Positions 9,132 through 44,592 of a stretch of DNA of 64,000 nucleotides are shown piece after piece. Origin of the DNA: Bradyrhizobium sp. (GTDB taxonomy: Bacteria; Pseudomonadota; Alphaproteobacteria; Rhizobiales; Xanthobacteraceae); NCBI RefSeq assembly GCF_047605465.1, contig NZ_JASGFS010000012.1, positions 22,214 through 86,213 of the forward strand. Reading direction: 5' to 3'. The stretch's first letter is position 1. Each line of letters opens with the position of its first letter. The position numbers and the translations under genes are program-made. Under the pieces are notes generated by a model. The model made no database searches. It was not told where the DNA came from and saw only the letters and a list, made by a program, of their open reading frames with translations.

Positions 9132-9241
9132 AATCTGGCTTGGAGAAACGTGTATAGCTGCGGCCTCAGGGAGGTCCGCTGCGGGGAGTCTTGCGCGCGT
9201 GACGGCAATCGTCGGCGCCAATCAGAAACGAAAGGTGGAAA

Positions 9242-10426: not shown

Positions 10427-10460
10427 GCGGTCGATCGAGCGCAACGTTAAGGAACTTGGG

Positions 10461-13071: not shown

Positions 13072-13756
13072 GATCAAGGATCTCGTCGTCCGCTATGGCG
13101 GCATCACCGCGCTCGACCGCGTCTCCGCCGAGGTCGGCAAGGGCGAGACGGTCATCCTGCTTGGCGCAAACGGGGCGGGGAAGTCGAGCCTGATCAACTC
13201 CATCATCGGCGTCGTTCCTTCGGCCGCCGGCGTGATCCAGCTCGACGATCGGACCATCAGCCAGTCGCCCGCTTCGAGCCGGGCCGGGTTCGGCATCGGA
13301 TATTCGCCGGAAGGCCGTCGCGTCTTCCCGACCATGACCGTGCGCGACAATGTGCTGGTCGGGGCTGCGCGTCTGGGCCGGGCGGCCCAGGCCGAAGCCT
13401 ATGGCAGGCTGGCGGCGCTGTTTCCCATGCTCGAAGGCCGCGCCAACGATCTCGCAGGTCACCTCAGTGGGGGACAACAGCAGATCGTGGCGATCGCGCG
13501 CGCGATGAGCGCGTCTCCGCGCCTGCTGTTGCTGGACGAGCCTTTCCTCGGCCTGGCTCCGGTCTGGATCCAGCAGATCAGCTCGGCGATCCGCCACTTC
13601 GCCGCGGCCGGCACGACCATCCTAATGACGGAGCAGATGGCCATTCCGGCGCTGAAGGTCGCGACGCGCGGCTATGTCATGCGGGGCGGCCAGATCATCC
13701 GCGGCGGCACCGTCGATGACATCAAGGAATCGGCTCTCACGGAGGATTACCTCTAA
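13064..13756 (+). CDS. ABC transporter ATP-binding protein (LivF-like)
   Basis: Walker A GANGAGKSS, signature LSGGQQQIVAIARA, Walker B LLLLDEPFLGLAP. Confidence 0.9.
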   Translation: MLKIKDLVVRYGGITALDRVSAEVGKGETVILLGANGAGKSSLINSIIGVVPSAAGVIQLDDRTISQSPASSRAGFGIGYSPEGRRVFPTMTVRDNVLVGAARLGRAAQAEAYGRLAALFPMLEGRANDLAGHLSGGQQQIVAIARAMSASPRLLLLDEPFLGLAPVWIQQISSAIRHFAAAGTTILMTEQMAIPALKVATRGYVMRGGQIIRGGTVDDIKESALTEDYL

Positions 13757-29367: not shown

Positions 29368-30192
29368 CTATGCCTTGACGGCGCCGGCCGTCATGCCGTC
29401 GATGAAGCGCCGTTGCAGCAACACGAAGACAACGACGACCGGCAGGACGATGATCACAGCTGCCGCCAGCATCTCGCCCCAATCCGTGGAATATTGCCCG
29501 GTCAGGCTATAGAATTTCACGATGGCTGTGACGTTGTCGTTGTTCTGCAGGAACGTGACCGCGATGACGAACTCGTTCCAGGCATTGAGACCGACGATGA
29601 TGGCGACCGTCAGAAGTCCCGGCCGCATCATCGGCAGGATGACGTAATAGAATTTCTGCCAGGCGGTCGCCCCATCGACCTCCGAGGCTTCCTCCAGCGC
29701 ATAGGGGATCGAGAGAACATAGGTGCGCAGCAGGAAGATCGCGAACGGCGAGAACATCGCCGTGTAGATCAGCGCCACGGCCGGGATCGAATTGACGAGA
29801 CCGAGCTTGGCGAAGATGAAATACAGGGGATAGAGATAGAGCTGTACCGGAACGGTGATCGTCGCCATCAGGTAGAAGGTCACGAAGCGCCAGCCGCGCC
29901 CCTTCTGGCGGGCAAGCACGTAGGCGCATGGCGCGGCCGTGAGGCACACGAGGATGACGGTGAGGCCCGCCACCTCGATGCTGTGCAGCAGGCTCGGGCC
30001 GAGCGCGGCATTCTTCCAGGCGGCCGAGAAGTTCTCCCAATGCATCTGGACGGGCGGCGCCAGCGGATTGGTGCTGATCTCGACCGTGGTCTTCAGCGCA
30101 TTCATCACCGTGAGCGCGATCGGCAGCAGCGAGGCGAATGACGCCACTCCGATCAGGATCAGGCAGAGTGTCCGGTTCAGGCGGCTTTCCAT
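29368..30192 (-). CDS. Carbohydrate ABC transporter permease (CUT1, MalG/UgpE-like)
   Basis: Starts MESRLNRTLCLILIGVASFASLLPIALTVMNALKT. It carries an EAA-loop region (LEEASEVDGATAWQKFYYVILPMMRPG). ATG 30192 overlaps the upstream permease stop (ATGA). The rest of the listed 484-aa ORF is an artefact. Confidence 0.9.
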   Translation of the reverse strand: MESRLNRTLCLILIGVASFASLLPIALTVMNALKTTVEISTNPLAPPVQMHWENFSAAWKNAALGPSLLHSIEVAGLTVILVCLTAAPCAYVLARQKGRGWRFVTFYLMATITVPVQLYLYPLYFIFAKLGLVNSIPAVALIYTAMFSPFAIFLLRTYVLSIPYALEEASEVDGATAWQKFYYVILPMMRPGLLTVAIIVGLNAWNEFVIAVTFLQNNDNVTAIVKFYSLTGQYSTDWGEMLAAAVIIVLPVVVVFVLLQRRFIDGMTAGAVKA

Positions 30193-31040
30193 CACGCGGC
30201 CTTGGCGCCATCGCGCGTTTGCAGCCACAGATACACCGCCGTCGCGCACAGGCCGAACAGGCTCATCACGCACGCCGCCGCCGTCGCCTTGCCGACATCG
30301 CCGTTGAAGAAGGCGTTGCGATAGGCCAGCGTCGCGAGCACCTCGCTGCCATAGGCCGGGCCGCCCTGGGTCACGATGTAGATGAACTCGAAGACCTGGA
30401 ATGACCAGATCACGGTGAGGATCATCATCAGCAGCAGCGTCGGCTGGATTCCCGGCAGCAGGACATAGCGCAGCAGGGCGAAGAAACCGGCGCCGTCGAG
30501 ACGGGCCGCCTCGATCTGGTCGACGCTGATCTGCCGCATGGCCGCGAAGAACACCACCGCGAGAAATCCCCACCAATGCCAGATGTCGACCGCGGCGACG
30601 GCATAGAGCGACCGGTCCGGGTCGGCGAGCGGGTCCGAGATCGAGAATCCGAGACCGTTGAGCCAGCCGAGCAGCCCGGTCGTGGGGCTGAAGATCATGC
30701 CCTGGAAGATGCGTCCCGTGATCGCGGCAGCGAGAATTCGCGGCAGGAAAATGATCGATTGGACCACGATACGCGACTTGGGGGCCATCATCAGCGCCGC
30801 AGCCATGACCAGGGCGAGGCACATCGGGACGATCAGGAAGATGGCCGTCCAGATGAAGTTATTGGTCAGCGCGGTCCAGAATACGGGATCCTCGAACAGG
30901 CCCTGGAAGTTGGCGAGGCCTGCCCACACCGGCGTGCCGACGCCGTCCCAGAAGAAGAACGCCGCCGCGAGCGTGAGCAGAGCCGGAATGAGGATGATGC
31001 AAACGTTGATGAGGAGCGCGGGAAGCGCAAACAGCCACAT
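30192..31040 (-). CDS. Carbohydrate ABC transporter permease (CUT1, MalF/UgpA-like)
   Basis: Polytopic, with EAA loop IEAARLDGAGFFALLRYVLLPGIQPT. Confidence 0.9.
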   Translation of the reverse strand: MWLFALPALLINVCIILIPALLTLAAAFFFWDGVGTPVWAGLANFQGLFEDPVFWTALTNNFIWTAIFLIVPMCLALVMAAALMMAPKSRIVVQSIIFLPRILAAAITGRIFQGMIFSPTTGLLGWLNGLGFSISDPLADPDRSLYAVAAVDIWHWWGFLAVVFFAAMRQISVDQIEAARLDGAGFFALLRYVLLPGIQPTLLLMMILTVIWSFQVFEFIYIVTQGGPAYGSEVLATLAYRNAFFNGDVGKATAAACVMSLFGLCATAVYLWLQTRDGAKAA

Positions 31041-31049
31041 CAGTTCATC

Positions 31050-32393
31050 TCAAGCCGTGCGGGGAGGGAGCGGCGGCACTTTGCCTTCCTTCAATTCCTG
31101 GGCGAATACGGTCTGCAGGCGGCTGAGGAACGCCTCGGTGGTGATCCGGTTCAGCCAGACCTGCTCGGTGCCTTCGATGATGTAGCTGTTGGCCGCGTTC
31201 GGCCAGAACGTCCAGGTCGTGAAGCCGAACCGGCCCGACGCGAAGGCTTCTTGCAGCCCCGCAATGGTCTTCTCGAACAGCGGATAGCCGATTCCCTTGA
31301 GCAGGTCGGGCGGCAGATCCTTCACCGGCAGCGCCCATTTGCCCGGCCAGTCGCGGTTCATCGTCTCGTAGAATTTCCGCGACAGCATGAATTCGAACAC
31401 CGCCGCCGCGCCTTCGGCGTTCTGCGAATTCTTCGCGATCGACAGCGTCGCGCCGCATGCGAGGTGCACGAGCGGCGCGGTCACCAGATCACTCAGGCCA
31501 GGGATCGGAGCCACGTCCATCACGGTGTCCGGCTTGGACATGCCGTAGGACTTGGTGCCGAAGGCCCAGGTGCCGCCGAAGGCCATGGCGGCCTTGCCGT
31601 TGACGACCTGCAGGAAGCTCTGCTCGATGGTGAGCGAGAAATAGTTCTTTCCGAAGTAGCCCTTGTTGTACCACGACTTGGCGAGCTCGACCGCTTCTAC
31701 GAAGGGCGGTGCGGTCCACGGCAACTCGCCGCTGAGTGCCTTGCGGACGTTGTCCGGTCCCGCGACGTTGTTGAAGAACACCGTCATCAGCCATTCATTC
31801 ACGCCCTTCCAGTCGGCATTGCCGGCGCCGAAGGGAACGATGCCCTTGGCGAGGGCGGCATCGGCGAGTTGCTCGAATTCCGCACGGTTGGTCGGCAGCT
31901 TCCAACCGTTCTGGCTCAACAGCTCCTTGTTGTAGAACAGGTGCATGGATTCGTAGTCGCGCGGCAGCGCGTACAGCTTGTCGTCGAACACGCCGGTGTT
32001 GAGAAGCGCAGGCAGGAAGCGCTCTTTCCACTTGTACTTGGCCGCGAAATCGTCGAGCGGCAACACCTGGCCGGCCTTGGCGATGGCCGTGAGATAGGAG
32101 GGGCCCGAGGTCTGCACGATGTCGGGGCCGTTGCCGGCGAGCAGCGCGACCTTCAGGAGGTTGTTGACCGCAGCGCCCTTGACCTCGAGCTGCAGCAGAT
32201 ATTTGTCCTGCGATGCGTTGAACGCGTCGACGAGATTGTTGCGCAGCGCGGCCTGGCCGTCGGAATTGGCTTGAGCGAACCAGAAGGTGACGACCTTGCG
32301 TCCGTCCTGCGCCATGGCGGGACCACGCGGCAGGCTCGCTGCAACGGCGGCGGCTGGAATGGCAGCAACGATCTGGCGACGGGTTACGGACAT
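31050..32393 (-). CDS. Extracellular solute-binding protein family 1 (sugar ABC substrate-binding protein)
   Basis: Signal peptide MSVTRRQIVAAIPAAAVAASLPRGPAMAQ followed by VVTFWFAQANSDGQ..., the size and composition of CUT1 binding proteins. It is first in a 3-gene operon that lacks an ATPase. Confidence 0.85.
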   Translation of the reverse strand: MSVTRRQIVAAIPAAAVAASLPRGPAMAQDGRKVVTFWFAQANSDGQAALRNNLVDAFNASQDKYLLQLEVKGAAVNNLLKVALLAGNGPDIVQTSGPSYLTAIAKAGQVLPLDDFAAKYKWKERFLPALLNTGVFDDKLYALPRDYESMHLFYNKELLSQNGWKLPTNRAEFEQLADAALAKGIVPFGAGNADWKGVNEWLMTVFFNNVAGPDNVRKALSGELPWTAPPFVEAVELAKSWYNKGYFGKNYFSLTIEQSFLQVVNGKAAMAFGGTWAFGTKSYGMSKPDTVMDVAPIPGLSDLVTAPLVHLACGATLSIAKNSQNAEGAAAVFEFMLSRKFYETMNRDWPGKWALPVKDLPPDLLKGIGYPLFEKTIAGLQEAFASGRFGFTTWTFWPNAANSYIIEGTEQVWLNRITTEAFLSRLQTVFAQELKEGKVPPLPPRTA

Positions 32394-32449
32394 GGCGGCG
32401 CTTTCTCTTCCCTGGAAACGGTTGGATCATGGCGGTTGATATTGTTTTG

Positions 32450-32463
32450 GTAATACGTATAAC
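32450..32463. promoter_or_regulatory. LacI-type operator candidate (GTAATACGTATAAC, 12/14 palindromic, central CG)
   Basis: It lies in the 78-bp divergent region between the sugar-binding-protein gene and the LacI gene, in an AT-rich patch. Confidence 0.35.
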
Positions 32464-32471
32464 TAACGCAT

Positions 32472-33524
32472 ATGAAGACGTCAACACGGATGCCGCGACG
32501 CGGCGCGGGCAGCGAGCGCGCAGGCTCGCGGCCGACCCAGAAGGACATCGCGCTCGCCGCCGGTGTCTCGCAGGCCGCCGTGTCGCTGGTGCTCAACAAG
32601 TCGGAAACGCCGTCGGTTCCTGAGGCGACGCGGGCGCGCATCCTCAAGCTCGCGGGCGAGATGGGCTATCAGCCGCATCATCCGGCGCGAATGTTGCGCC
32701 GCGCCCGAACCATGGCGATCGCCTGCGTCGTGCCCGACATCACCAACCCGTTCTATCCCGGCCTCGTCAGAGGCGTGCAATCGGTCGCGGCGCCTGCCGG
32801 TTACGACGTCCTGATGTTCGATACGGACGGACGGGAGGACGGCGAGGCCCGCGCGCTGAACTGGTTGCTTCAGGGGCGCGCGGACGGCGTGGTCGGCACG
32901 TTCTTCCACTTGCGCGTGCCGGAATTGGCTGCGCTTGCGCGGCAGAGCGTTCCGATCGTGCGGCTGGAGAGCCGGCACAAGGCCGGCGGCGACGTGCCGG
33001 TCGACAGCGTCTACATCGACAATGCCGAGGCATCGGCGGCGATGACACGCTACCTGATCGAACGCGGCCATCGGAGGATCAGCATGATTCTCGCGCAGGT
33101 GGGCCCGAGCCGTCAGCGCGAACTGGGATACGCCGCGGTGATGAAGGACGCCGGGCTCACGGTCGATGTGGTCACGGACAGCCGCTATTCGGAAGAGTCG
33201 GGCGCGCGCGCGATGACCGAGATTCTGGCGCGGGGACGCAGCCGGCCGACCGCCGTGTTCGGCGCCAACGACATGCTCGCGGTCGGCGCGATGGTCTGCG
33301 CGCGGAGCGCGGGCCTGTCCGTGCCCGGGGACGTCGCGATCGCGGGATTTGACGACATTCCCGCGGCGAAGCTGCTTGGCCTGACCACGGTTCGCCAGCC
33401 GGAGTTCGACCTCGGCGCGCTCGCGGCGCGCACATTGGTGGGCCGCCTGCAGCCGGGCGGCCTGAAGCCGCTCGGGCAGAGTCTCGAGCTGAAGTTTGAA
33501 ATCATGAAACGTTCGTCGGCCTGA
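32472..33524 (+). CDS. LacI family transcriptional regulator
   Basis: HTH PTQKDIALAAGVSQAAVSLVLNKSE...PEATRARILKLAGEMGYQPHHPARMLR plus a sugar-binding core (IAGFDDIPAA). Confidence 0.9.
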   Translation: MKTSTRMPRRGAGSERAGSRPTQKDIALAAGVSQAAVSLVLNKSETPSVPEATRARILKLAGEMGYQPHHPARMLRRARTMAIACVVPDITNPFYPGLVRGVQSVAAPAGYDVLMFDTDGREDGEARALNWLLQGRADGVVGTFFHLRVPELAALARQSVPIVRLESRHKAGGDVPVDSVYIDNAEASAAMTRYLIERGHRRISMILAQVGPSRQRELGYAAVMKDAGLTVDVVTDSRYSEESGARAMTEILARGRSRPTAVFGANDMLAVGAMVCARSAGLSVPGDVAIAGFDDIPAAKLLGLTTVRQPEFDLGALAARTLVGRLQPGGLKPLGQSLELKFEIMKRSSA

Positions 33525-33549
33525 TGCCGGCGGATCAAGGGAGCAACGC

Positions 33550-35700
33550 GTGCCTGCGATACCAAATGACTATGCCGAACGCGTCTATGCGGGTGTGCTC
33601 GGTAAACTGATCGGCGTCTATCTCGGGCGTCCGTTCGAGGGCTGGACCTATGAGCGGATCATGCAGGAGCTGGGTCCGATCAATTTCTACGTCAACGAGC
33701 GTCGCGACGTGGCGTTGCGTTCGCACCATCTCATCGTCACCGACGACGATGTGTCCGGCACCTTCGCTTTTCCACGGGCGCTGGCCGATTGCGGCTTTCC
33801 GGAACGGTTGACCTCTCGGCAGATCGGGAACGGCTGGCTCAACTACATCGTCGAGGACCGTTCGGTCCTGTGGTGGGGAGGGATGGGCAACTCGACCGAG
33901 CACACCGCCTATCTCAGGCTCAAGTCCGGCATTCCGGCGCCGCAGAGCGGTTCGATCGAACTGAACGGCAAGACCGTGGCCGAACAGATCGGCGCGCAGA
34001 TCTTCATCGATGGCTGGGCGATGGTGAGCCCGGGGGATCCGGAGCGGGCGGCCTATCTCGCCGACCAGGCAGGCCGCGTCAGCCATGACGGCGAATCCGT
34101 TCACGCCGCCAAATTGCTGGCGGCGATGGAAGCGCAAGCCTTCGTCGAGGGGGATGTCCAGCGGCTCCTGGATGTCGGCCTTGCATTCGTTCCCGCCGAC
34201 AGCCTGATTCGTCGGGTGGTGCAGGACGTGCGCGACTGGCATGCAGGCGACAACAGCCATGATTGGGAACGTACGCGCGCGCTGATCGCCGACCGCTACG
34301 GCTACGACAAGTTCAAGGGCAATTGCCACGTCATTCCCAATCACGCCCTGATCGTGCTGGCCACACTCTATGGCGGGGACAGTTTCCAGACCGCGATGAG
34401 GATCGCCAACACGGCCGGCTGGGACACCGACTGCAACGCGGGCAATGTCGGATGTCTGTTCGGGATCCGGACCGGGCTCGCGGGCATCGACGGCGGGCCG
34501 GACTTCCGCACGCCGATCGCGGACCGCATGTATATCTCCACGGCGGATGGAGGCGGATCGATCACCGATGCCGTGATCGAGGCGAACGCGTTGATCAAGG
34601 CCGGCTATGCGCTGGCCCGAACGGAGCCGCCGGCGCCCGCCAAGAACGGTGCGCGTTTCAGTTTCGAGTTTCCCGGCAGCTTGCAGGGCTTCTGCGTCAA
34701 GTCCGATGCGCCGGCGCATTTGCATCAGGTCGAGATCGGCAATGTGGAAGGGCACAGCCGCGACGGGCAGCGCAGCCTGGCCATCGGCTTTCGGCGTCTG
34801 GCGCCGGGCCGGGTGGCGCGCGTCGCGACACCGACGTTCTTCGACAAGGACGTTTTCACGATGCCGATCTACCAGCTCCTCGCTTGTCCGACGCTGCATT
34901 CCGGACAAGTGGTCGAGGGCAGGGTGGAGGCCGGCGACGGCGTGAATGACGTCACGGTGCGGCTCTATGCGAGCGTCTATGACGAGCAGGATCAGCTCAG
35001 GCAGATCTATGGCGAGCCGCGGCAATTGGAGGGAGGCCGCGAGGCGATCCTGAGTTGGCGGCTTCCCGATACGAGCGGATACCCGATCTTCGAGATCGGG
35101 CTCGAGCTCGAGGCGCAGCAGCCATTCGGAACCGACGGCACGGTCTATCTGGATTATCTCACCTGGTCCGGCGCGCCGGAGACCAGGCTTTACCGGCCGG
35201 ACAACAATCTGAGCTCGATGTGGAAGCACGCCTGGGTGAACAACGTCAGTCAGTTCCAGACGCGCTGGGAAGGCCTGCGCGTGACCAACGGCGAGGGCAT
35301 CGGCTCGATTTCCCAGGGATCGCGTGACTGGTGCGACTATTCCGTCAAGTCGGAGATCACGCCGCTGATCGCAAAGGCGTGGGGGCTCGCTGCGCGCGTG
35401 CAGGGACGCGAGCGCTACTATGCGCTGATGTTCGACGATGCCGACGGCGGCCACGTCAAGCTGATCAAGCGCGATCACGACGAGACCATCCTGGCCCAGG
35501 AACGGTTTGTCTGGAATCTCGACCGGCCTTACGCGGTGGAGTTGCGCCTGCAGGATACGCAGATCCGCGCCTTCGTCGACGGCAGGGAGGTGTTTTCGGT
35601 GCGCGACGACGACAAGCTGCGGCTACGCGGCGGCGCCGCCGGACTCGTCGTCGATACCGGATCGATCTCGTCGCAGGCAGTCCATATCTCTCCGCTCTGA
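33550..35700 (+). CDS. ADP-ribosylglycohydrolase (ARH/DraG)-fold domain fused to C-terminal beta-sandwich modules (ConA-like lectin/glucanase or DUF1080-like)
   Basis: The N-terminal ~350 aa carry ARH motifs: GVLGKLIGVYLGRPFEGW (Lys where Asp is usual), LIVTDDDVSGT, NTAGWDTDCNAGNVGCLFG. The C-terminal ~360 aa are beta-rich and end ...WGLAARVQGRERYYALMFDDADGGHVKLIK...YAVELRLQDTQIRAFVDGREVFSVRDD...GGAAGLVVDTGSI, typical of LamG/DUF1080-type jelly rolls. Confidence 0.75.
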   Translation: MPAIPNDYAERVYAGVLGKLIGVYLGRPFEGWTYERIMQELGPINFYVNERRDVALRSHHLIVTDDDVSGTFAFPRALADCGFPERLTSRQIGNGWLNYIVEDRSVLWWGGMGNSTEHTAYLRLKSGIPAPQSGSIELNGKTVAEQIGAQIFIDGWAMVSPGDPERAAYLADQAGRVSHDGESVHAAKLLAAMEAQAFVEGDVQRLLDVGLAFVPADSLIRRVVQDVRDWHAGDNSHDWERTRALIADRYGYDKFKGNCHVIPNHALIVLATLYGGDSFQTAMRIANTAGWDTDCNAGNVGCLFGIRTGLAGIDGGPDFRTPIADRMYISTADGGGSITDAVIEANALIKAGYALARTEPPAPAKNGARFSFEFPGSLQGFCVKSDAPAHLHQVEIGNVEGHSRDGQRSLAIGFRRLAPGRVARVATPTFFDKDVFTMPIYQLLACPTLHSGQVVEGRVEAGDGVNDVTVRLYASVYDEQDQLRQIYGEPRQLEGGREAILSWRLPDTSGYPIFEIGLELEAQQPFGTDGTVYLDYLTWSGAPETRLYRPDNNLSSMWKHAWVNNVSQFQTRWEGLRVTNGEGIGSISQGSRDWCDYSVKSEITPLIAKAWGLAARVQGRERYYALMFDDADGGHVKLIKRDHDETILAQERFVWNLDRPYAVELRLQDTQIRAFVDGREVFSVRDDDKLRLRGGAAGLVVDTGSISSQAVHISPL

Positions 35701-35709
35701 GGACGCAAC

Positions 35710-36729
35710 ATGCTGGAGATCCCTTCGAACCGCTTCGAGGCCCATGTTCTGGCGTGCCTCGTGTTCGGCGTGATCGGCGATGCCATGGGGACGCCCACGG
35801 AGAATCTCGAACCGGCCGAGATCGAGCGCCGCTTCGGCTGGGTGGACCGGTTCGAAGGCGATGGGACCGACGACACGATCATGCGCGATCTGATCGCTGC
35901 CGCGCTAATCAGGACCGGAGGCTATGCGGACGCGGATCATTGGGCCGAGGAGTGGCTTGCGCAGTACCAGATGATCTTCGGCGGCAAGGTGGGGCGCTTC
36001 TTCCCATCGGTTCTGCACGCAGCCGCCAAGCTTCGCCACGGATATCCGCCGCGCACGATCGCGGTGGGCACCATGCCGAGCTCGAGTTCGGCGATGGCGA
36101 TCGCGCCGGTCGGAATCGTCAATGCCGGCAACCCGCGCGCCGCCGCCGCACAGGCCATGGAGATCGCGAGCCTGATCCACGTGGCGGATGTCGGGTTCTG
36201 CCAGGATGGCGCCGCCGCCATTGCGGCCGCCGTAGCCGAAGCGCTGGTGCCGGGCGCAACGGTGGCATCGGTCCTGCAGGCCTCGACCGCGCATCTGAAG
36301 CCGAAGAGCGGCGAGGAAATGCGGTCGCTGATCGTCACTGCGCTGGAACTTGCGGATGAGGCCGGCGACTACAAGACATTCCGTGACCGCTACCACGCCA
36401 GGTTTCGGCAACGGATCGCCTGCGACAGCCGTGAAACGGTGCCTGCGTCCCTCGCGATCGTCCATCTGTCCCGCGGCGACCCGGCGCTGGCCGCCGGCTA
36501 TGGCGCGAATTTCGGGCGCGATGCGGACACGGTTGCGTGCATGGCCGCCGCCGTCTGCGGGGCGCTCAGCGGCATTTCCGCTGGGAATGCCGAACTGATC
36601 GAAGCCTTGCCGGTCGATGCGCAGCGCGCCCAGGTCGACCTTGCATCGCGGCTGGTGATCGTGACGCGTGCCAAGGTGGAAAGCGAACTGAAGGCGATAG
36701 CGCGCTGCCCGGTCGGCGTATCGGCCTGA
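35710..36729 (+). CDS. ADP-ribosylglycohydrolase family protein (canonical metal-site motifs)
   Basis: CLVFGVIGDAMGTPTE, GDGTDDTIM, and ANFGRDADTVACMAAAVCGALSG form the complete ARH/DraG-type binuclear-metal signature. It starts 9 nt after the previous stop. Confidence 0.85.
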   Translation: MLEIPSNRFEAHVLACLVFGVIGDAMGTPTENLEPAEIERRFGWVDRFEGDGTDDTIMRDLIAAALIRTGGYADADHWAEEWLAQYQMIFGGKVGRFFPSVLHAAAKLRHGYPPRTIAVGTMPSSSSAMAIAPVGIVNAGNPRAAAAQAMEIASLIHVADVGFCQDGAAAIAAAVAEALVPGATVASVLQASTAHLKPKSGEEMRSLIVTALELADEAGDYKTFRDRYHARFRQRIACDSRETVPASLAIVHLSRGDPALAAGYGANFGRDADTVACMAAAVCGALSGISAGNAELIEALPVDAQRAQVDLASRLVIVTRAKVESELKAIARCPVGVSA

Positions 36730-36731
36730 TC

Positions 36732-36759
36732 GAGATGGCGCCGAATGCGCGCCCATCTC
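36732..36759 (+). other. Imperfect hairpin directly after the second ARH gene (attenuator/terminator candidate)
   Basis: gagatggcgc...gcgcgcccatctc forms about 10 bp of stem with one bulged C and a 5-7 nt loop, with no T-tract. It lies in the 163-bp gap before the TIM-barrel gene. Confidence 0.3.
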
Positions 36760-36892
36760 CGGAATGAAGCGTTGCAGCGAGCGAAGCTCCAGGCCCGATT
36801 GCGAGCGGGCATCTGCCGGTTATCCTGAAGATCGCCACGACGTGCGCCGGTGGTGCGGCGGTTGAGCGATCCGTCGTGCCGGGATATAGGAA

Positions 36893-37990
36893 GTGTTGAT
36901 CACTGCACTCCCGGATGCGCTCATGAAACCAAGAACAATGCGCGGGCCTGGGCTGTTCATCAGCCAATTCATCGGTGGACAGCCACCATTCGACACGCTC
37001 TCCGGCCTCGCCGGGTGGGCGCGCGAGATCGGCTTCAAGGCGCTGCAGATACCGCTCTCCGATCCGCGCCTCAAGGATCTGGCGGGACTGCCCGAGCGAG
37101 ATACGCTGGCCAGAATCGAGGCGGTCATGTCGCAGGCGGATCTCATCGTCAGCGAGGTTGCAGCGCAGCGATCGGGCCAGTTGCTGGCCGTTCACCCCGC
37201 CTATGATGAAACGATGGATGTGCTGGCGTCGCCGGATGTCCGCGGGCGCCCCGCTGCGCGTCAGGCACAGGCCGAGCAGGATCTGCGGCGCGCCATCGCT
37301 CGCGCCGCAGCGCTCGGGGCCGGCAAGGTCGTGGTATTCTCGGGCGGGCTTGCTTGGCCTTACTTCTATCCCTATCCGCCGCGTCCGGAAGGTCTCATCT
37401 CTCGTGCGTTCGACGAACTTGCCCGGCGTTGGCGTCCGCTCCTCGACGAAGCCGATCGCGCCGGCGTCGACCTCTGCTTCGAGCTCCATCCCGGGCAGGA
37501 TCTACACGACGGCGTCACCTTCGAACGGTTCCTCGCCAGCGTAGATCACCATCCGCGCGCCAAGATCAACTACGATCCCAGTCATTTCCTGCTGCAGCAG
37601 ATGGACTATCTCGGCTTCATCGATCGCTACCACGCGCGCATCGGGGCCTTTCACGTCAAGGACGCCGAGTTCACGCCGAGTGCGACAAGCGGCGTCTATG
37701 GCGGCTATCAGGACTGGCTCGACCGGCCCGGACGTTTCCGCAGCGTCGGCGACGGCCAGATCGACTTCGCCGGCATCTTCGATCGCCTGACCCGCTACGG
37801 CTATGACGGCTGGGCCGTGCTCGAATGGGAGTGTTGCCTGAAGAACTCCGACGACGGGGCGCGGGAAGGGGCACAATTCATCGAAGCGCACATCATCCGT
37901 GTTTCGGAGCGATCGTTCGACGCCGCGCTCGGTACGTCCATGCCCGCGGAGAAAATCGATCATTTGCTGGGCCTGGCGAGGCGTTCATGA
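36893..37990 (+). CDS. Sugar phosphate isomerase/epimerase (xylose isomerase-like TIM barrel, AP_endonuc_2)
   Basis: GFKALQIPL, VVVFSGG, LCFELHPGQD, NYDPSHF, FHVKDA, and WAVLEWE carry the conserved Glu/Asp/His metal ligands of this fold. An alternative start is at 36923. Confidence 0.8.
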   Translation: MLITALPDALMKPRTMRGPGLFISQFIGGQPPFDTLSGLAGWAREIGFKALQIPLSDPRLKDLAGLPERDTLARIEAVMSQADLIVSEVAAQRSGQLLAVHPAYDETMDVLASPDVRGRPAARQAQAEQDLRRAIARAAALGAGKVVVFSGGLAWPYFYPYPPRPEGLISRAFDELARRWRPLLDEADRAGVDLCFELHPGQDLHDGVTFERFLASVDHHPRAKINYDPSHFLLQQMDYLGFIDRYHARIGAFHVKDAEFTPSATSGVYGGYQDWLDRPGRFRSVGDGQIDFAGIFDRLTRYGYDGWAVLEWECCLKNSDDGAREGAQFIEAHIIRVSERSFDAALGTSMPAEKIDHLLGLARRS

Positions 37991-39162
37991 CCAATCCCGT
38001 CCTGAAGGCGCTCGGGCGCCCCTTTCGGCTCGGCATCGTCGGTGGCGCCCCGCCATCCATGATCGGGCCGGTCCACCGGGTGGCGGCGACCATGGACCAG
38101 CGCTTCGCACTGGTCGCGGGTATGCTGTCCTCCCGCGCGGAGCGATCGAAGGCGGAAGGCGTCGCCGCGGGCCTGAACGAAGCGCGTTGCTATGGCAGCA
38201 TCGAGGAGTTCATCGCAAGTGAACGCGCGCGCGAAGACGGTATCGAGGCCATTGCCATCATCACGCCGAACGACAGCCACGCCCCGTATCTGAAACTGGC
38301 TTTAGCAGCAGGGCTCGACGTGATGATCGAGAAGCCGCTGTGCAACGAACTGAGCGAGGCGCGGCAACTGCGCGATCTGGCGGCCTCCAGCGGTTGCGCG
38401 GTCGCAGTGACGCACACCTATTCCGGCTATCCGATGGTCCGCGAGATGCGCGCCCGCTGCCTGTCGGGTGAGATCGGCTCGCTTCGTCTGGTCCAGATCG
38501 AATATCTCGCAGGTGGACTTGCGACGGCGGTCGAACTCGGGCCGGACGCCGACCAGCGCTGGCGGCTAAAACCCGAGCGCAGTGGGCCGTCACTCGTCCT
38601 CGGCGATATCGGCACTCACGCACACCATCTCGTTTGCTTCGTCACCGGGCAGCCGTTCGAGCGCGTGTCCGCGGACGTCGGGACCATGGTTCCCGGCCGC
38701 AAGGTGCATGACGTCGCGCAGGTGCGCTTTCGTCTCGCCGACGGGTCCCGCGGACAGCTCGACGTCAGCAACGCGGCGACCGGCATGTCCAACCATATCC
38801 GGCTGCGTCTCTATGGCGAGAAGGGGCAGATGGAGTGGGTGCATGGCAGGCACAATGAGCTTTCGATCGCTGCGCTCAGCGGAGAGGTCCGCACGATTTC
38901 CGGCGGCCAGCCGATGCTGACGGCGGATGCGCAGCGTTCATCGCGGCTGATGCGCCCCGGTCATCCCGAGGGACTGCAGGAGGCCGTGGCCAACCTCTAT
39001 TGCGGGCTGGCCGGCATGATGCTCGCGCGCCGCGGCCACTCGTCGTCGGAAGCGCCCGGACTGGTGCCGACGATCGATGACGGCGTCGCGGGGCTTGCCT
39101 TCGTGATGGCATGCCTGGAAAGTTCGGCGAAAGACGGGGCGGTGGTTCGTTTGGACCAATGA
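37987..39162 (+). CDS. Gfo/Idh/MocA family NAD(P)-dependent oxidoreductase
   Basis: Rossmann N-terminus FRLGIVGGAPPSMIGPVHR, AIAIITPNDSHAPY and the MIEKPL (EKP) motif. ATG 37987 overlaps the upstream stop (ATGA). Confidence 0.85.
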   Translation: MTNPVLKALGRPFRLGIVGGAPPSMIGPVHRVAATMDQRFALVAGMLSSRAERSKAEGVAAGLNEARCYGSIEEFIASERAREDGIEAIAIITPNDSHAPYLKLALAAGLDVMIEKPLCNELSEARQLRDLAASSGCAVAVTHTYSGYPMVREMRARCLSGEIGSLRLVQIEYLAGGLATAVELGPDADQRWRLKPERSGPSLVLGDIGTHAHHLVCFVTGQPFERVSADVGTMVPGRKVHDVAQVRFRLADGSRGQLDVSNAATGMSNHIRLRLYGEKGQMEWVHGRHNELSIAALSGEVRTISGGQPMLTADAQRSSRLMRPGHPEGLQEAVANLYCGLAGMMLARRGHSSSEAPGLVPTIDDGVAGLAFVMACLESSAKDGAVVRLDQ

Positions 39163-39180
39163 TTTGAGGCGCGAGATACG

Positions 39181-39852
39181 ATGGCGACAATATTGGTGAC
39201 GGGGTGCGATACGGGGCTGGGTGTCGAATTCGCCCGGCAATATGCGGGTGACGGACATCGCGTGATCGCAACCTGCCTCGATCCCGCCGCGGCGACGGAG
39301 GCCACAGCCATTCGAGGCAATATCGAGGTGGTGAAGCTCGATGTGACTGATCATGCCGCGATCGAAGCTTTGTCACGACAGCTCAAGGGCGAGGCGATCG
39401 ACATTCTCCTCAACAATGCCGGGATCGGCCGCCCGCATCCGCCATTCGGCGAAACGGACTATGGGCTCTGGCAGCGGATCCTGCAGACCAATTTGGTCGG
39501 GCCCATGAAAATGGCCGAGAGCTTCGTTGCTCAGGTGGAGCGAAGCGAACTGAAGATGATGGCGTTCGTGTCGAGCCGGATGGGCTCGATCGCGCTGAAC
39601 AATTCCGGTGGATCGTACGCCTATCGTTCGAGCAAGGCGGGCCTGAACATGATCGTGAAGACGCTGGCCGTCGACCTCGCGCCGCGTCATATCTGCGTTT
39701 TGGCACTGCACCCGGGATGGGCGGCAACCGAGCCGGGCGGACGCGTGCCGGTCGCCGAAAGCGTCGCCGGCATGCGCGGGGTGATCCATCGCGCCGGCCG
39801 CCATCATACCGGCAGCTTCGTCACCTATCACGACCAGCCGCTGCCGTGGTGA
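39181..39852 (+). CDS. Short-chain dehydrogenase/reductase (SDR)
   Basis: ILVTGCDTGLGVEFA (TGxxxGxG), NNAGI, S...YRSSKAGLN (YxxxK catalytic motif). Confidence 0.85.
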   Translation: MATILVTGCDTGLGVEFARQYAGDGHRVIATCLDPAAATEATAIRGNIEVVKLDVTDHAAIEALSRQLKGEAIDILLNNAGIGRPHPPFGETDYGLWQRILQTNLVGPMKMAESFVAQVERSELKMMAFVSSRMGSIALNNSGGSYAYRSSKAGLNMIVKTLAVDLAPRHICVLALHPGWAATEPGGRVPVAESVAGMRGVIHRAGRHHTGSFVTYHDQPLPW

Positions 39853-39856
39853 TGCA

Positions 39857-40273
39857 TTACTTGCCTTCTTCCGCTGCGTCGGAGAGCTGGAGAGGGCGTC
39901 TCAGGGTGATGTCTTCAGACTGGAAATAGAGCCTGACCGGAATGCGGGATCTTCCGACGCCGGCTTTCTCGGCGCTGAGCTGAATGTTGTGCGACGGGTT
40001 GCTGGTGAACTCGAAAGAGCCGTCGCTCCGGGTCCGCGTGGAAGCCTTTTCGACGAACGTCGTGAAATTGAACACCCACAGCTTGACCTCCGCGCCCTCG
40101 ACCGGCGCACCCGAGGCATCGACGACGCGGCCGGCGATCACGCCGTGATTATGGGTGAAGACCCAGGCATTCCAGGCCATCGCGACGATGACGAGCGTGG
40201 CCGGCACCAGGACGAAGCGGTTGAGCAACCAGCGCCTCCACCAGGGGCGGGCGAGATCGTCTTCAACGCTCAT
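39857..40273 (-). CDS. Small single-pass membrane protein with carboxypeptidase-regulatory-like (CarboxypepD_reg) beta-sandwich domain
   Basis: MSVEDDLARPWWRRWLLNRFVLVPATLVIVAMAWNAWVF (TM anchor) is followed by GVIAGRVVDASGAPVEGAEVKLW...TRSDGSFEF. ATG 40273 overlaps the permease stop (ATGA). The rest of the listed 417-aa ORF is an artefact. Confidence 0.6.
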   Translation of the reverse strand: MSVEDDLARPWWRRWLLNRFVLVPATLVIVAMAWNAWVFTHNHGVIAGRVVDASGAPVEGAEVKLWVFNFTTFVEKASTRTRSDGSFEFTSNPSHNIQLSAEKAGVGRSRIPVRLYFQSEDITLRRPLQLSDAAEEGK

Positions 40274-41085
40274 CCCTTGGTCGCTCCGGTGGTCAGGCCC
40301 TGAACGAACTCCTTCTGCGCGAGCAGGAACAATAGGATGCCTGGCGCAAGCACCATGATGCAGAACGCATAGAGCGCACCCGTCGTATCCTCCTGATAGG
40401 AGATGAAGCGGGCCAGCCCGAGCGGCAACGTCTGCATGTCCTGCGAGCGCGTTGCGATCAGCGGCCACATGAAGTTGTTCCAGGACCAGATGAAAGAGAG
40501 GATCACATTGGTCGCGACGGCCGACTTGGCGAGCGGCATCATCACCTTCCAGATGATCCGCCATTCGGACAGCCCATCGACACGTGCGGCATCGATCAGC
40601 GAGCGCGGCACTGCGTCGAAGCTCGCCTTGAACACGAAGATGCAGATGATGGTGGAGAACATCGGCAAGGCAAGGCCGAGATAGGAATCGAGGAGGCCGA
40701 GCTTGCCCGTGATCAGATAGGCCGGGATGATCGTGGCCTGGAAGGGGATCATCATGCAGGACAGGAACAGCATCAGCACGATCTGCTTGCCCGGAAACGT
40801 CTGCGTCAGCGCATAGCCTGCCATCGCGTTGAGGACGATGTTCGCGATGATCGTCAGGACGGATACGACGACGCTGTTCAGGAAGTAGCGCGCGAAGGGG
40901 ATCGCGTACCAGACGTCGACATAATAGAACGGGTGCGGATCGCGCGGGATGATGCTGGGCGGGTAGGAGAAGATGTTCTCCCCGGAGATCGAGGTCTTCA
41001 GCACCCAGTAGAACGGCACGAGCATGACGAAGCACACGGCGATCAGTGCGAGGTGAATCGGCCAGCGCCGTTGCCGCCTCGCCAT
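40270..41085 (-). CDS. Carbohydrate ABC transporter permease (CUT1, MalG-like)
   Basis: MARRQRRWPIHLALIAVCFVMLVPFYWVLKTS and EAA loop LIDAARVDGLSEWRIIWKVMMPLAKS. ATG 41085 overlaps the upstream stop. Confidence 0.9.
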   Translation of the reverse strand: MARRQRRWPIHLALIAVCFVMLVPFYWVLKTSISGENIFSYPPSIIPRDPHPFYYVDVWYAIPFARYFLNSVVVSVLTIIANIVLNAMAGYALTQTFPGKQIVLMLFLSCMMIPFQATIIPAYLITGKLGLLDSYLGLALPMFSTIICIFVFKASFDAVPRSLIDAARVDGLSEWRIIWKVMMPLAKSAVATNVILSFIWSWNNFMWPLIATRSQDMQTLPLGLARFISYQEDTTGALYAFCIMVLAPGILLFLLAQKEFVQGLTTGATKG

Positions 41086-42029
41086 CAGTCCTGCTCCACC
41101 GCGCCGACATTGCCGCCCGAGAGCCGGTTGGCGGCCCACGTCACGACCAGCAGCAGGACGAAGAAGACGACGGTGATGGCCGCCGCGTAGTCGAATCGAG
41201 TCTGGTTGAAGGCGAGCTTGTAGATGTAGGTGACCAGGATCTCGGTGGCATGGCCCGGTCCGCCATTGGTCATGACGTAGATCAGGTCGAAGCTCGTGAC
41301 CGAATTGAGCATACCGATCACGAAGCAGAGGAACAGAGACGGCCGCAGCAAGGGCAGGGTGATGCGCAGGAAGCGGCGGAAGGCGTTAGCGCCGTCGATT
41401 TCGGCCGCCTCGTACAGATTGCCGGGAATGGTCTGCAGGCCCGTCAGGATGATGATCATGTAGAAGCCGAGCATCTGCCAGATGTTGGCGGCAATGACGC
41501 ACGGCAGTGCCCATGTGAACGAGTTGAGAAAGGGGATCGGCTGATCCGCCAGGTGCAGAGATCGCGCGACGTAGTTGATCAGTCCGACGCGCTCGTCGAA
41601 CATCCAGCGCCAGATGATGGCGACCGCGACCGTCATGAGCGGATAGGACAGGAAGATCAGGGTGCGATAGACCTCGCGGCCCCGGATGTTGGCGTTGACG
41701 AGGAGAGCGAGCCCCAGCGCGATCGCGATGCCGAGTGGCGCGGAGGCGATGATTCCGAGCGTGTTCCAGAGCGCTTGCCAGAACACGTCGTCGTCCGAGA
41801 ACATCTCCTGGTAGTTGTCGAAGCCGATGAACACCGCGAGCTTGAGCGGCGACCAGGCCTCGAAGGAGAGCACGACGTTCCAGCCGAGCGGTAGGATCCG
41901 GTAGAGCAGAAAGATCAGCAGCGAGGGCGCAAGGAAGGCCCAGATCAAGACCGCCTTGCGCGTCGATCGGCGCTCGGTGAAGCGGGGGCGCGCGCGGGGC
42001 GTATCGATGGCCGTCACCGACATGATCAT
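41085..42029 (-). CDS. Carbohydrate ABC transporter permease (CUT1, MalF-like)
   Basis: Polytopic, with EAA loop LYEAAEIDGANAFRRFLRITLPLLRPS. Confidence 0.9.
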   Translation of the reverse strand: MIMSVTAIDTPRARPRFTERRSTRKAVLIWAFLAPSLLIFLLYRILPLGWNVVLSFEAWSPLKLAVFIGFDNYQEMFSDDDVFWQALWNTLGIIASAPLGIAIALGLALLVNANIRGREVYRTLIFLSYPLMTVAVAIIWRWMFDERVGLINYVARSLHLADQPIPFLNSFTWALPCVIAANIWQMLGFYMIIILTGLQTIPGNLYEAAEIDGANAFRRFLRITLPLLRPSLFLCFVIGMLNSVTSFDLIYVMTNGGPGHATEILVTYIYKLAFNQTRFDYAAAITVVFFVLLLVVTWAANRLSGGNVGAVEQD

Positions 42030-42079
42030 TCCCTGGTCGTCCGCAATGTCGCCCTGCCGACGCCGCGGCGATGCCTTGA

Positions 42080-43330
42080 TTACGACCGCCGCAGGACGCG
42101 GGTGACGGCGCGCTCGGCGTCGGCAAGCGCGGTCTTGGCATCCTTGCGTCCGAGGACCGCGTTCTGGAATTCCGGCCAGAAAGCTTCCTTGATCTGGGCG
42201 TCGTTCGCCAGCGGCCAGTTTCCGGTCATCTTGTCGGTGTGCTCGAGCTGGGTCTGCAGCACCGCGTAGGCCAGGGGATCATCGGCCTTGACCGACTCCA
42301 GGCCCGCCTTGTCCGCCTCGATGTTCGCCGTGAGCACGCGGCGGATCTGCGCAAGCCGCGTCGCCCATTTCACGCTCGTCATGTGCTTGACGAGGGCAAA
42401 CGCCAGCTCGGGGTTCTTCGAGCTCTTGGAGACGCCAAAGCCGTGGTTGGTCGGCGTCGACCAGTCGCCCGGTGCCTGGGTTGCGCCCAATGTCTCCGGA
42501 TTGATCCAGCGGCCCTGTCCCTTGACGAAGAAATAGGACGCCGAATGAGCCTGCAGCATGCCGACCGTCCCGGATGCGAAGGCGCCGTTCGGCTCGACCC
42601 AGCGGCCGGTCCAGGCGATCTTGTTGATCGCGCCGGCGGCCGTGGATTTGGCGAGACGATCGAGCAGTTCGGCCGCCGCCGCCGTGTTGAAGGCGGGCTT
42701 CTTCAGATCGGGCGTGAGGAGCTCGATGCCGTTCATTTTCATCAGCGGCCAGTACAGCCAATCGAAATTCAGCGTCAGGAAGCCCGTCTTCTCGCCCTTG
42801 CCCATCGCCTGGGCGGACGTGAGAAGTTCGTCGAACGTCTTGGGCGGCCCGGCGAGCCCGGCCTCCTTCAACATGGTCTTGTTGTAATAGAGCAGGGTCT
42901 TGGCGACGTAGAACGGGACGAGATAGTTCTTCTTCTCGTAGACGAAGGAGGACATGTAGTCCGGATTGAACATCTTCACGAAGGCAGGATCGGCCTGGAA
43001 GTAGGGTGTCAAATCCAGCAGGGCGCCGTTCGCCGCCCACTCGACCCACAGCGCGCCCTGGATGTCGATGACGTCGGGCGCGGTGCCGGCGACCAGCTGG
43101 GTCTGGTAGAAGGCGGGAAGGTCCGGTCCCTTCTTGTCGAGCCATTCGATCTCGACGCCGGGATTGGCCTTCTTGAAGTCCTCGAACTCTTCCTTGAACA
43201 GCGCCTCCTGGTCGGCGATGTTCCAGGTCAAGATGCTGATCTTCTTGTTCGATTGCGCCCGCAGATAAGCAGGCATCGCCAGTGTTCCGGCCGCGGCCAG
43301 ACCCGTCTTGAGAACCGTCCTGCGATCCAT
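42080..43330 (-). CDS. Extracellular solute-binding protein family 1 (sugar ABC substrate-binding protein)
   Basis: Tat-like signal MDRRTVLKTGLAAAGTLAMPAYLRAQ followed by KISILTWNIADQE.... I chose ATG 43330, preceded by GGAGGA. Confidence 0.85.
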   Translation of the reverse strand: MDRRTVLKTGLAAAGTLAMPAYLRAQSNKKISILTWNIADQEALFKEEFEDFKKANPGVEIEWLDKKGPDLPAFYQTQLVAGTAPDVIDIQGALWVEWAANGALLDLTPYFQADPAFVKMFNPDYMSSFVYEKKNYLVPFYVAKTLLYYNKTMLKEAGLAGPPKTFDELLTSAQAMGKGEKTGFLTLNFDWLYWPLMKMNGIELLTPDLKKPAFNTAAAAELLDRLAKSTAAGAINKIAWTGRWVEPNGAFASGTVGMLQAHSASYFFVKGQGRWINPETLGATQAPGDWSTPTNHGFGVSKSSKNPELAFALVKHMTSVKWATRLAQIRRVLTANIEADKAGLESVKADDPLAYAVLQTQLEHTDKMTGNWPLANDAQIKEAFWPEFQNAVLGRKDAKTALADAERAVTRVLRRS

Positions 43331-43405
43331 CTCATCCTCCCGGCTCGTGAACGCAGAGGCTCTCGATGGGCATCCGTCGTCCGACATGATGGTCGTTTTT
43401 TCAAA

Positions 43406-43419
43406 TGTTAGCGCTTGCA
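43406..43419. promoter_or_regulatory. LacI-type operator candidate (TGTTAGCGCTTGCA, 10/14 palindromic)
   Basis: It lies in the divergent region between the binding-protein operon and the LacI gene. Half-sites are TGTTAGC/TGCAAGC around a central GC|GC. Confidence 0.3.
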
Positions 43420-43493
43420 TAGGCGTGGTCAAGAGTTTGCGGAATCTTTGAAACAGCCAGAGTTTTTGCAGTGCATCTTGATTGACAGAGGCA

Positions 43494-43507
43494 TGAAAGC
43501 GCTCTCA
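43494..43507. promoter_or_regulatory. LacI-type operator candidate (TGAAAGCGCTCTCA, 12/14 palindromic)
   Basis: It begins 6 nt downstream of a TTGACA hexamer (43482..43487), so it would overlap the -10/+1 zone of a promoter reading toward the LacI gene. Confidence 0.4.
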
Positions 43508-43536
43508 TTCTTGGCCTCGTCCGATTTTCCTGCGGT

Positions 43537-44580: not shown

Positions 44581-44592
44581 GGTGGAGGGCCA

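Follow-up and report, generated by a model that had tools for sequence, protein, structure and literature searches.

The question raised by this locus is whether six neighbouring genes on one strand of a Bradyrhizobium genome act in a single catabolic pathway. The window, which is the whole stretch of 64,000 nucleotides (nt) that was analysed (contig NZ_JASGFS010000012.1, high-GC at about 65%), carries in succession on the + strand a LacI-family repressor (LacI-1), a 716-amino-acid (aa) protein in which an ARH-type hydrolase domain is fused to further domains (the ARH fusion), a single-domain ARH protein (ARH2), a xylose-isomerase-like TIM barrel, a Gfo/Idh/MocA oxidoreductase (Gfo) and a short SDR. 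The successive gaps between these genes are 25, 9, 163, -4 and 18 nt. A sequence-only reading had described the six as one cassette matching no known pathway. Open reading frame (ORF) calls and Pfam searches confirm the genes, their order, strand, spacing and domains. The single cassette is not supported by comparison with related loci. The explanation that we favour overall, and consider probable, is that two independent modules have been juxtaposed only in this Bradyrhizobium lineage and have the functions proposed below: Module A (29368-36729), which contains the ARH genes and LacI-1, and Module B (36893-45687), which begins with the TIM barrel.

Co-occurrence and synteny of the six genes

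A scan with one genome per species, using an alignment of the 716-aa protein as query, gave at least 517 confirmed homologues of the ARH fusion from at least 599 pattern matches, and 80 genome loci were taken from it. The homologues in these loci show about 50% full-length identity to the 716-aa protein, and the hosts are Bradyrhizobium, Reyranella, many Chloroflexota, Poribacteria, Bacillota, Verrucomicrobia and Chthonomonadales. Six metagenome contigs, all close Bradyrhizobium relatives with the nearest at 85-86% identity, and 11 plasmid loci bring the sample to ~100 ARH-fusion loci; more than 7,900 homologues are present in the protein collection. A metagenome scan with the TIM barrel contributed 80 loci. 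Neighbour families were derived by searching the 80 genome loci with the window proteins (tblastn) and by clustering all ORFs of the loci, and synteny was assessed by blastn of the window against the fetched loci, cited below by their L numbers.

The two groups of genes were not found together outside the window. No TIM, Gfo or SDR gene of the types in question stands beside an ARH-fusion homologue in the 80 genome loci, the 6 metagenome contigs or the 11 plasmid loci, and none of the 80 TIM metagenome loci contains an ARH gene. In the metagenome relatives, the nearest ones at 85-86% identity included, ARH2 is the last gene and is followed by unrelated genes on the opposite strand. The families that travel with the ARH fusion in the 80 genome loci are ABC permeases (40 and 38), LacI regulators (35) and family-1 binding proteins (30). 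A single-domain ARH gene adjoins the fusion in 11 of these 80 loci, and an ARH2 homologue is also found beside it in all of the Bradyrhizobium metagenome loci and in Ensifer-type operons. On the megaplasmids of Rhizobium spp. the gene order is LacI-SBP-perm-perm-fusion-UgpC, where SBP is a solute-binding protein and perm a permease, and on those of Ensifer, Sinorhizobium, Agrobacterium, Phyllobacterium and Nitratireductor it is LacI-perm-perm-SBP-ARH-fusion-UgpC.

The TIM barrel has companions of its own. A Gfo homologue lies directly beside it in about 60 of the 80 metagenome loci, essentially wherever the contig permits, and a copy of the SDR (78-80% identical) follows TIM-Gfo only in L084, L085 and L089 as a lineage-specific companion. 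Gfo/Idh/MocA genes do occur near the ARH fusion in 14 of the 80 genome loci. They were rejected as an ARH-Gfo link: they are of a different subfamily, usually on the opposite strand at a distance of over 1 kb, and their frequency is roughly at chance level if Gfo genes are as numerous in those genomes as assumed.

Synteny divides the six genes at the same place. The window is colinear from 29368 to 36723 with four Bradyrhizobium loci (L001, L004, L081 and L082) at 81-84%, and this similarity ends at both edges of the block, the right edge falling at 36711-36723 and the ARH2 stop being at 36729. The genes flanking Module A differ in every relative, and include cytochrome oxidase, CN-hydrolase, PAS/GGDEF or another ABC system. 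Further along, the window is colinear from 37149 to 44580 with L084 and L089 at 68-78%, and, at the same level of similarity, with L085, where the alignment begins at 36935. The gene order in L084 and L089 is that of the window: TIM, Gfo, SDR, an Ig-like protein, two permeases, a solute-binding protein (SBP2) and a second LacI regulator (LacI-2). The segment 36717-36934 has no match among the fetched loci, and the 163-nt gap within it (36730-36892) is accordingly similar to none of them.

The distribution of candidate operators agrees with this division. The palindrome GTAATACGTATAAC (32450-32463) lies in the divergent promoter region upstream of LacI-1 and is the sole copy in the window, and we infer that it is bound by LacI-1. 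The same GTNATACGTATNAC is found upstream of the LacI orthologue in L003, L004, L005, L081 and L082, as well as in the Chloroflexota loci L056 and L071. In the divergent region between SBP2 and LacI-2 there are two LacI-type palindromes, ATGTTAGCGCTTGCAT (43405-43420) and ATGAAAGCGCTCTCAT (43493-43508), and these are the only exact matches to ATGnnAGCGCTnnCAT in the window.

Based on these alignments, the six genes very probably belong to two separately inherited carbohydrate-use modules, and the boundary between them is the 163-nt gap. The comparisons show that Module A is inherited as a block, which is met again, under the same putative operator, in lineages as far apart as Bradyrhizobium and Chloroflexota, and by gene order TIM-Gfo-SDR belongs with the downstream ABC system and LacI-2. 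The neighbourhood survey (none of ~100 ARH-fusion loci, none of 80 TIM loci) and the break in synteny between 36723 and 36935 thus speak strongly against the single six-gene cassette as a co-inherited unit, and the adjacency of the genes on one strand across a 163-nt gap is no evidence here of a shared pathway.

The ARH half

Module A consists of an importer on the - strand and a regulator with two hydrolases on the + strand. The importer is of the CUT1 type and comprises permease 2 (29368-30195, -; BPD_transp_1 1.2e-19), which has a GTG start and a 4-nt overlap with permease 1 (30192-31040, -; BPD_transp_1; its family accompanies the ARH fusion in 38 of the 80 genome loci), and SBP1 (31050-32393, -; SBP_bac_1 3e-23), a periplasmic solute-binding protein of family 1, the oligosaccharide/glycoside type. 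Orthologues of permease 2 are 83-93% identical in Bradyrhizobium loci and 37-48% identical in Chloroflexota and Bacillota loci, where they adjoin ARH-fusion homologues. LacI-1 (32472-33524, +; 350 aa) has the Pfam LacI and Peripla_BP domains, and its top NCBIfam matches are RbsR and CytR, far under the cut-off. Downstream of it are the ARH fusion (33550-35700, +; PF03747 1.3e-53 over residues 15-314) and ARH2 (35710-36729, +; 339 aa; PF03747 5.4e-40), the final gene of the module. Scores against PF03747 are 183 bits for the fusion and 138 bits for ARH2 at a cut-off of 26.2, covering positions 2-285 and 1-283 of the 287 in the model. The 716-aa protein is 100% identical to one encoded on a Bradyrhizobium sp. 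contig. Among the ORFs scanned with Pfam between 22 and 48 kb, none has a domain of a glycoside hydrolase, sugar kinase, nucleoside hydrolase or phosphorylase, in line with what the sequence-only reading had noted of the six-gene island.

The ARH fusion has three predicted domains and no signal peptide. An AlphaFold model built from a 47-sequence alignment (predicted local distance difference test, pLDDT, 83; predicted template-modelling score, pTM, 0.89) places an N-terminal ARH catalytic domain at about 33550-34630, all-helical to about residue 355, followed by a first beta-sandwich at about 34645-35190 (residues about 366-548) and a second, CBM66/lectin-like, at the C-terminus (about 35215-35697, residues about 556-716). 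In Foldseek searches the neighbours of the N-terminal domain are MJ1187, ARH3 and DraG, with target template-modelling scores (TMt) of 0.74 for 1t5j, 0.75 for DraG 2woc and 0.63-0.67 for ARH3. The last sandwich resembles CBM66 (4b1l; template-modelling score 0.80, root-mean-square deviation 2.1) and the lectin domain of galactocerebrosidase (GALC), and the two sandwiches taken together look like tandem galectins and CBM22 tandems. Weak Pfam matches to 3keto-disac_hyd, DUF6250, TS_C and Glyco_hydro_59_C, of the PF21708/PF06439 type, are in keeping with this. Matches of ~385 residues that might have represented the C-terminal region as an independent protein were inspected and proved to be truncated gene calls of the same fusion. 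The region is therefore found only in the fusion architecture, and there is no other architecture from which a function could be borrowed.

The predicted metal sites are well conserved in both proteins. In ARH3 and DraG structures, T/S-D-D and D-x-D-T/S motifs supply the ligands of a binuclear metal site. The fusion has TDDD (residues 64-67) and DTDCN (292-296), invariant in all 47 sequences, with an invariant Cys295 where other ARHs have Thr at the last metal-site position. In ARH2 the motifs GDAxG...E, TDD (T53 D54 D55) and NxGRDxD (D271 x D273) are invariant in 12 homologues. Two further stretches of the fusion, 33871-33909 (residues 108-120, WWGGxGNSTEHTA) and 33946-34017 (residues 133-156, SG...N...V..QIG.QIF.D.W), are invariant across the 47 homologues, yet the model gives them a pLDDT below 50. 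They may form mobile substrate loops that are specific to the family and lie close to the active site.

Clustering assigned 90 proteins of the 80 genome loci to the ARH-fusion family, and the presence of more than one copy in some loci hints at diversified specificities. In L062 (Anaerolinea thermolimosa) two paralogues, at 3258-5378 and 9998-12115, flank LacI and ABC genes. Altogether the fusion ranges over soil rhizobia, Chloroflexota of sludge and sediment, sponge-associated Poribacteria, Deinococcus and an Enterobacter record. The last of these (L167; CP103578.1, Enterobacter hormaechei 'plasmid' pMB8072_1) carries at 7960-12419 a LacI gene, an ARH fusion (47% identical) and a binding protein between chiP and glnS, with no permease genes listed alongside the trio. 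The record is 517 kb long and is labelled a plasmid, yet it contains the housekeeping genes glnS, fur, seqA, pgm and nagABE.

The conserved context supports a sugar-uptake rather than a protein-modification setting for these ARH enzymes, and a kinase points to a particular sugar. A PfkB kinase is the only other tightly linked neighbour of the fusion (6 loci, same strand, a median of 31 bp away), and five of the six pass the ribokinase equivalog with 333-373 bits against a cut-off of 299.65. The unclustered genes immediately next to the fusion are, on inspection, a mixed set that seems to include kinase, LRR, GH30-like and MutS2-like proteins. Ribokinase lies directly beside the fusion in L013, L044, L064 and L066, nearby on the other strand in L034, and as a decayed copy after the fusion in L075. 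A ribokinase annotated by the Prokaryotic Genome Annotation Pipeline (PGAP) also ends a LacI-ABC-ARH-fusion-UgpC operon on an Agrobacterium tumefaciens plasmid. To our knowledge, every characterised enzyme of the ARH family acts on ribosyl linkages. Together, the LacI/CUT1 linkage, the adjoining ribokinase, the metal-site motifs kept by both ARH proteins, the sugar-binding-type sandwiches of the model, the ARH genes noted in ribose-utilisation loci of Bacteroidetes and the ribosyl chemistry of the family make release of ribose from an imported glycoside or oligosaccharide the best reading of Module A, one that we hold tentatively, at a little under an even chance. To this extent the proposal in the sequence-only reading that ARH enzymes deglycosylate an imported ribosylated compound stands for the ARH half, where the LacI/CUT1 linkage is conserved and ribokinase adjoins in several relatives, but its tie to the oxidative genes is not supported.

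If ribose is released, a ribofuranosyl-bearing extracellular glycoside or oligosaccharide would be imported by the CUT1 ABC system (SBP1 and the two permeases), and an effector would free LacI-1 from its putative operator, GTAATACGTATAAC. Once inside the cytoplasm, the compound would be cut at its ribosyl linkage or linkages by the two metal-dependent ARH-fold hydrolases, and the two lectin/CBM66-like beta-sandwiches of the fusion would hold its sugar part. Free ribose would then pass to a ribokinase, whose gene belongs to the operon in some relatives and would lie elsewhere in the genome here.

Several observations weigh against ribose release. Only about 7 of ~100 loci have the ribokinase next to the fusion, and all of these are from Chloroflexota or unclassified metagenome-assembled genomes, bar the one Agrobacterium plasmid. 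A tblastn search of the whole window with ribokinase gave no match. The nearest solved relatives of SBP1 are xylo- or chito-oligosaccharide binders at E 1e-24 or weaker and give no clue to the ligand. Neither the fusion protein nor its 47-sequence profile matches a solved structure by sequence, and no member of the ARH-fusion family has an assigned substrate.

The Agrobacterium operon offers a good experimental handle. It lies at 3382-13127 of its locus (L170; NZ_CP139999.1, A. tumefaciens HAMBI 105 plasmid) and is complete, with nine genes in the order LacI-perm-perm-SBP-ARH-ARH fusion-UgpC-ribokinase. The plasmid is conjugative, and the operon adjoins acyl-homoserine-lactone synthase and LuxR genes and has insertion sequence (IS) elements on its flanks.

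The alternative that fares best is that Module A is indeed a glycoside or oligosaccharide system in which the ARH fold cuts a sugar other than ribose, for instance another furanoside. The likeness of the C-terminal domain of the fusion to fructan-binding CBM66 and to the lectin domains of glycosidases would suit such a substrate, as would the likeness of SBP1 to oligosaccharide binders, the restriction of a nearby ribokinase to a minority of loci, and the position of the Deinococcus gene among GH2 and trehalase-family glycosidase genes. However, this would depart from the ribosyl specificity common to the characterised ARH-family enzymes, and ribokinase is the only tightly linked non-core gene, in two phyla. 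We consider this alternative rather unlikely, though it is the closest competitor of ribose release. The Deinococcus locus itself (L168, Deinococcus aetherius plasmid pDAETH-1, 2756-14577) carries an ARH-fusion homologue (50% identical) amid GH2, ABC importer, RICIN-domain and trehalase-family glycosidase genes, and its record has three matching places.

The TIM-Gfo half and the junction

The first gene of Module B encodes the TIM barrel (36893-37990, +; 365 aa; AP_endonuc_2 6.3e-41). It matches PDB 8ro4, the 2-hydroxy-3-keto-glucal hydratase AtHYD of Agrobacterium, at E 1e-128 over 336 residues with about 60% identity by hand count, and is probably its orthologue and a hydratase of the same kind. 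The operon of A. tumefaciens described by Bitter et al. 2023 (PMC10628242) encodes four enzymes: a glycoside 3-dehydrogenase that acts first on the glucoside by oxidising it, the TIM barrel AtOGE, which removes the aglycone by elimination, the second TIM barrel AtHYD, which hydrates the 2-hydroxy-3-keto-glucal, and a Gfo oxidoreductase by which 3-keto-glucose is reduced to glucose. The Gfo gene of the window (37987-39162, +; 391 aa; GFO_IDH_MocA N and C domains) overlaps the TIM stop (ATGA) and is translationally coupled to it. Its nearest solved relatives are uncharacterised oxidoreductases (PDB 3v5n, 9e-82), and by analogy with the Agrobacterium operon the protein is probably a 3-keto-sugar reductase or dehydrogenase. 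The SDR (39181-39852, +; 223 aa; adh_short 6.5e-32) is short and PRK08177/PRK06953-like, with NCBIfam matches under the cut-off. The claim that no known pathway matches thus holds for the uncharacterised ARH half but not for the TIM/Gfo half. The sequence-only reading had itself taken an already assigned pathway as the end of novelty, and the match of TIM to AtHYD, a member of such a pathway, removes it for this half.

Other assignments for TIM and Gfo were tried and rejected, IolE, IolG, levoglucosan dehydrogenase and DgpA all falling far under their cut-offs. The analogy to IolG/IolE that had been drawn from the gene pair fails by a wide distance, with 45.8 bits against 355 for TIGR04380 (iolG) and 57.6 against 290 for TIGR04379 (iolE).

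In the proposed chemistry TIM would hydrate a 2-hydroxy-3-keto-glycal and Gfo would reduce the 3-keto-sugar to the plain sugar. These steps would form the lower half of the route by which glucosides undergo oxidation, elimination, hydration and reduction in turn. That Module B carries out hydration and reduction in a 3-keto-glucoside route seems likely from these homologies. The upper half of the route weighs against it, as only one AP_endonuc_2 protein is present among the ORFs scanned in 22-48 kb, leaving no AtOGE-type beta-eliminase, and none of those ORFs is a GMC/FAD-type glycoside 3-dehydrogenase. Owing to these absences, the substrate of Module B and the direction of the Gfo reaction are only inferred; the Gfo protein might oxidise in place of a GMC dehydrogenase. 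The hydratase/reductase pair is found in varied sugar loci that have neither eliminase nor 3-dehydrogenase, such as L177 (A. brasilense Sp7 plasmid p3, 6998-12064), where an AtHYD-like TIM and its partner Gfo are flanked by a CUT2 sugar ABC system on one side and by xylA-xylB on the other.

The remainder of Module B is a second importer with its regulator. On the - strand are a small membrane-anchored protein with a CarboxypepD_reg (Ig-like) domain (39857-40273; Pfam 8.6e-10), two ABC permeases (40270-41139 and 41085-42029; BPD_transp_1 4.8e-20 and 7.5e-18; 75-76% identical in L084 and L089) and SBP2 (42080-43432; SBP_bac_1 3.5e-36; 78% identical in L084 and L089). The Ig-like protein has an N-terminal membrane helix, its start codon and the permease stop codon overlap (ATGA), and it is 57-59% identical in L084 and L089; it is an unusual fourth gene for a CUT1 importer operon. 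The two binding proteins mentioned in the sequence-only reading are real (31050-32393 and 42080-43432, both -), each with two permeases. LacI-2 (43537-44580) and an MsiK/UgpC-type ABC ATPase (44593-45687), both assigned by Pfam, follow on the + strand. The ATPase shares 50-55% identity with the UgpC of the ARH operons in Rhizobium and Ensifer, where the UgpC gene is part of the operon, and, as the sole CUT1 ATPase among the scanned ORFs, it could energise both importers. Elsewhere in the scanned region, an ORF of 1092 aa (22098-25376, +) has a Hydantoinase_B match confined to residues 517-1042. Its N-terminal half has no Pfam match at E 0.001 and may represent an over-extended start or an unrecognised fused domain.

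At the junction between the modules, Module B differs from its relatives. In L084 (9946-9959), L085 (5405-5418) and L089 (9946-9959), TIM is preceded by a conserved site of the LacI-2 type, TGTAAGCGCTATCA. The corresponding part of the window (36730-36934) lacks such a site upstream of TIM, and the 163-nt gap contains neither a LacI-1-type nor a LacI-2-type operator. In this strain the control region that normally precedes TIM-Gfo-SDR therefore seems to have been lost when the junction formed. Across 32300-40000 no match to a promoter or terminator consensus exceeds shuffle expectation. A hairpin at 36731-36759 was considered as a terminator after ARH2 and rejected, folding no better than shuffles (z -0.04). 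With no recognisable terminator, promoter or operator in the gap, read-through from ARH2 into TIM is possible in this strain, which tells against a full separation of the two modules here.

Such read-through would be expected if the six genes formed one pathway, with ARH deglycosylation followed by 3-keto processing by Gfo, TIM and SDR, and with all of them transcribed from the LacI-1 promoter. The genes share a strand, merely 163 nt separate ARH2 from TIM with no terminator-like site between them, and with the LacI-2-type operator gone TIM-Gfo-SDR may depend on upstream transcription. However, the complete lack of co-occurrence described above, the break in synteny exactly at the gap, and the fact that the operon stops with ARH2 even in relatives as close as 85-86% identity all speak against it, and genes only recently brought together need not share a substrate. 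A single pathway is accordingly improbable, and two modules remain the preferred explanation. Least probable is that the ARH proteins remove ADP-ribosyl groups from proteins or nucleic acids, in the manner of DraG, ARH3 or antitoxins, and lie beside sugar genes only incidentally: membership of the Pfam family, intact metal-site motifs and the structural neighbours ARH3 and DraG would allow it, but across phyla the ARH genes stay in operons with LacI and a sugar ABC importer, ARH2 reaches only 19.9 bits against the cut-off of 337 for the DraG equivalog TIGR02662 (the fusion has no match), no ADP-ribosyltransferase gene was seen among the neighbours, and beta-sandwiches of a sugar-binding type are fused to the enzyme, so that this function is unlikely in view of the conserved sugar-import context and the failed equivalog.

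Significance and comparison with known systems

With the cassette divided, interest moves from the six-gene combination to its ARH half. The TIM-Gfo chemistry and the 3-keto-glucoside pathway are already known, and on the homologies above this half is one more example of that recently described non-hydrolytic route, in which a hydratase/reductase pair that travels without the eliminase and dehydrogenase is here joined to an importer and a regulator of its own. What is new, on the best reading of Module A, is the recruitment of ARH-fold hydrolases to nutrient catabolism and their fusion to domains of a carbohydrate-binding type, in a widespread system. The protein at its centre, of some 700 residues and combining ARH and lectin-like domains, has no solved or characterised relative and is encoded beside sugar importers. 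More tentatively than ribose release itself, Module A may represent an undescribed, phylum-spanning catabolic class in which ARH-fold metalloenzymes, one of them fused to CBM-like beta-sandwiches, act as glycosidases in the cytoplasm on an imported glycan or glycoside that contains ribose. If ribose is indeed freed from a common environmental glycoside, both a nutrient and an enzyme class masked by the annotation 'ADP-ribosylglycohydrolase' could be named, and the ARH fold would gain a non-signalling role as a mainstream enzyme of nutrient acquisition.

Compared with the characterised members of the ARH/DraG family (ARH1, ARH3, DraG and MJ1187; PF03747), the proteins of the window are alike in their near-full-length match to the family model and in keeping the Thr/Asp-Asp and Asp-x-Asp motifs. 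The fusion differs in its two beta-sandwiches, in Cys295 and in the WWGGxGNSTEHTA loop, and its context is sugar import as opposed to protein modification.

For the role proposed here, a parallel is found in the ribose-utilisation (rus) loci of Bacteroidetes, where ARH-family genes are among the variable cleavage enzymes (Glowacki et al., 10.1101/574913). Full-text searches of the literature gave no paper on the ARH-fusion family, and this preprint was the only one to mention ARH genes in ribose loci. The rus loci couple a ribokinase and a regulator, often of the LacI family, to variable cleavage enzymes that in some species include ARH-family members, and scavenging of ribose from ribosylated nutrients is the idea common to both systems. 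However, uptake in the rus loci is by SusC/D at the outer membrane together with a permease, whereas Module A has a CUT1 ABC importer, and the substrates of the ARH members are no more established there than in Module A.

Module B invites comparison with two known systems. The inositol and rhizopine pairs (IolG/IolE and MocA/MocC) have the same two superfamilies side by side, but the window proteins score far under the corresponding equivalogs, and AtHYD is a much closer characterised relative. The 3-keto-glucoside operon of Agrobacterium is the better match, with an AtHYD-type TIM followed by an overlapping Gfo beside a sugar ABC importer, as in the window. Module B differs from it in having the additional SDR and the small membrane-anchored Ig-like protein.

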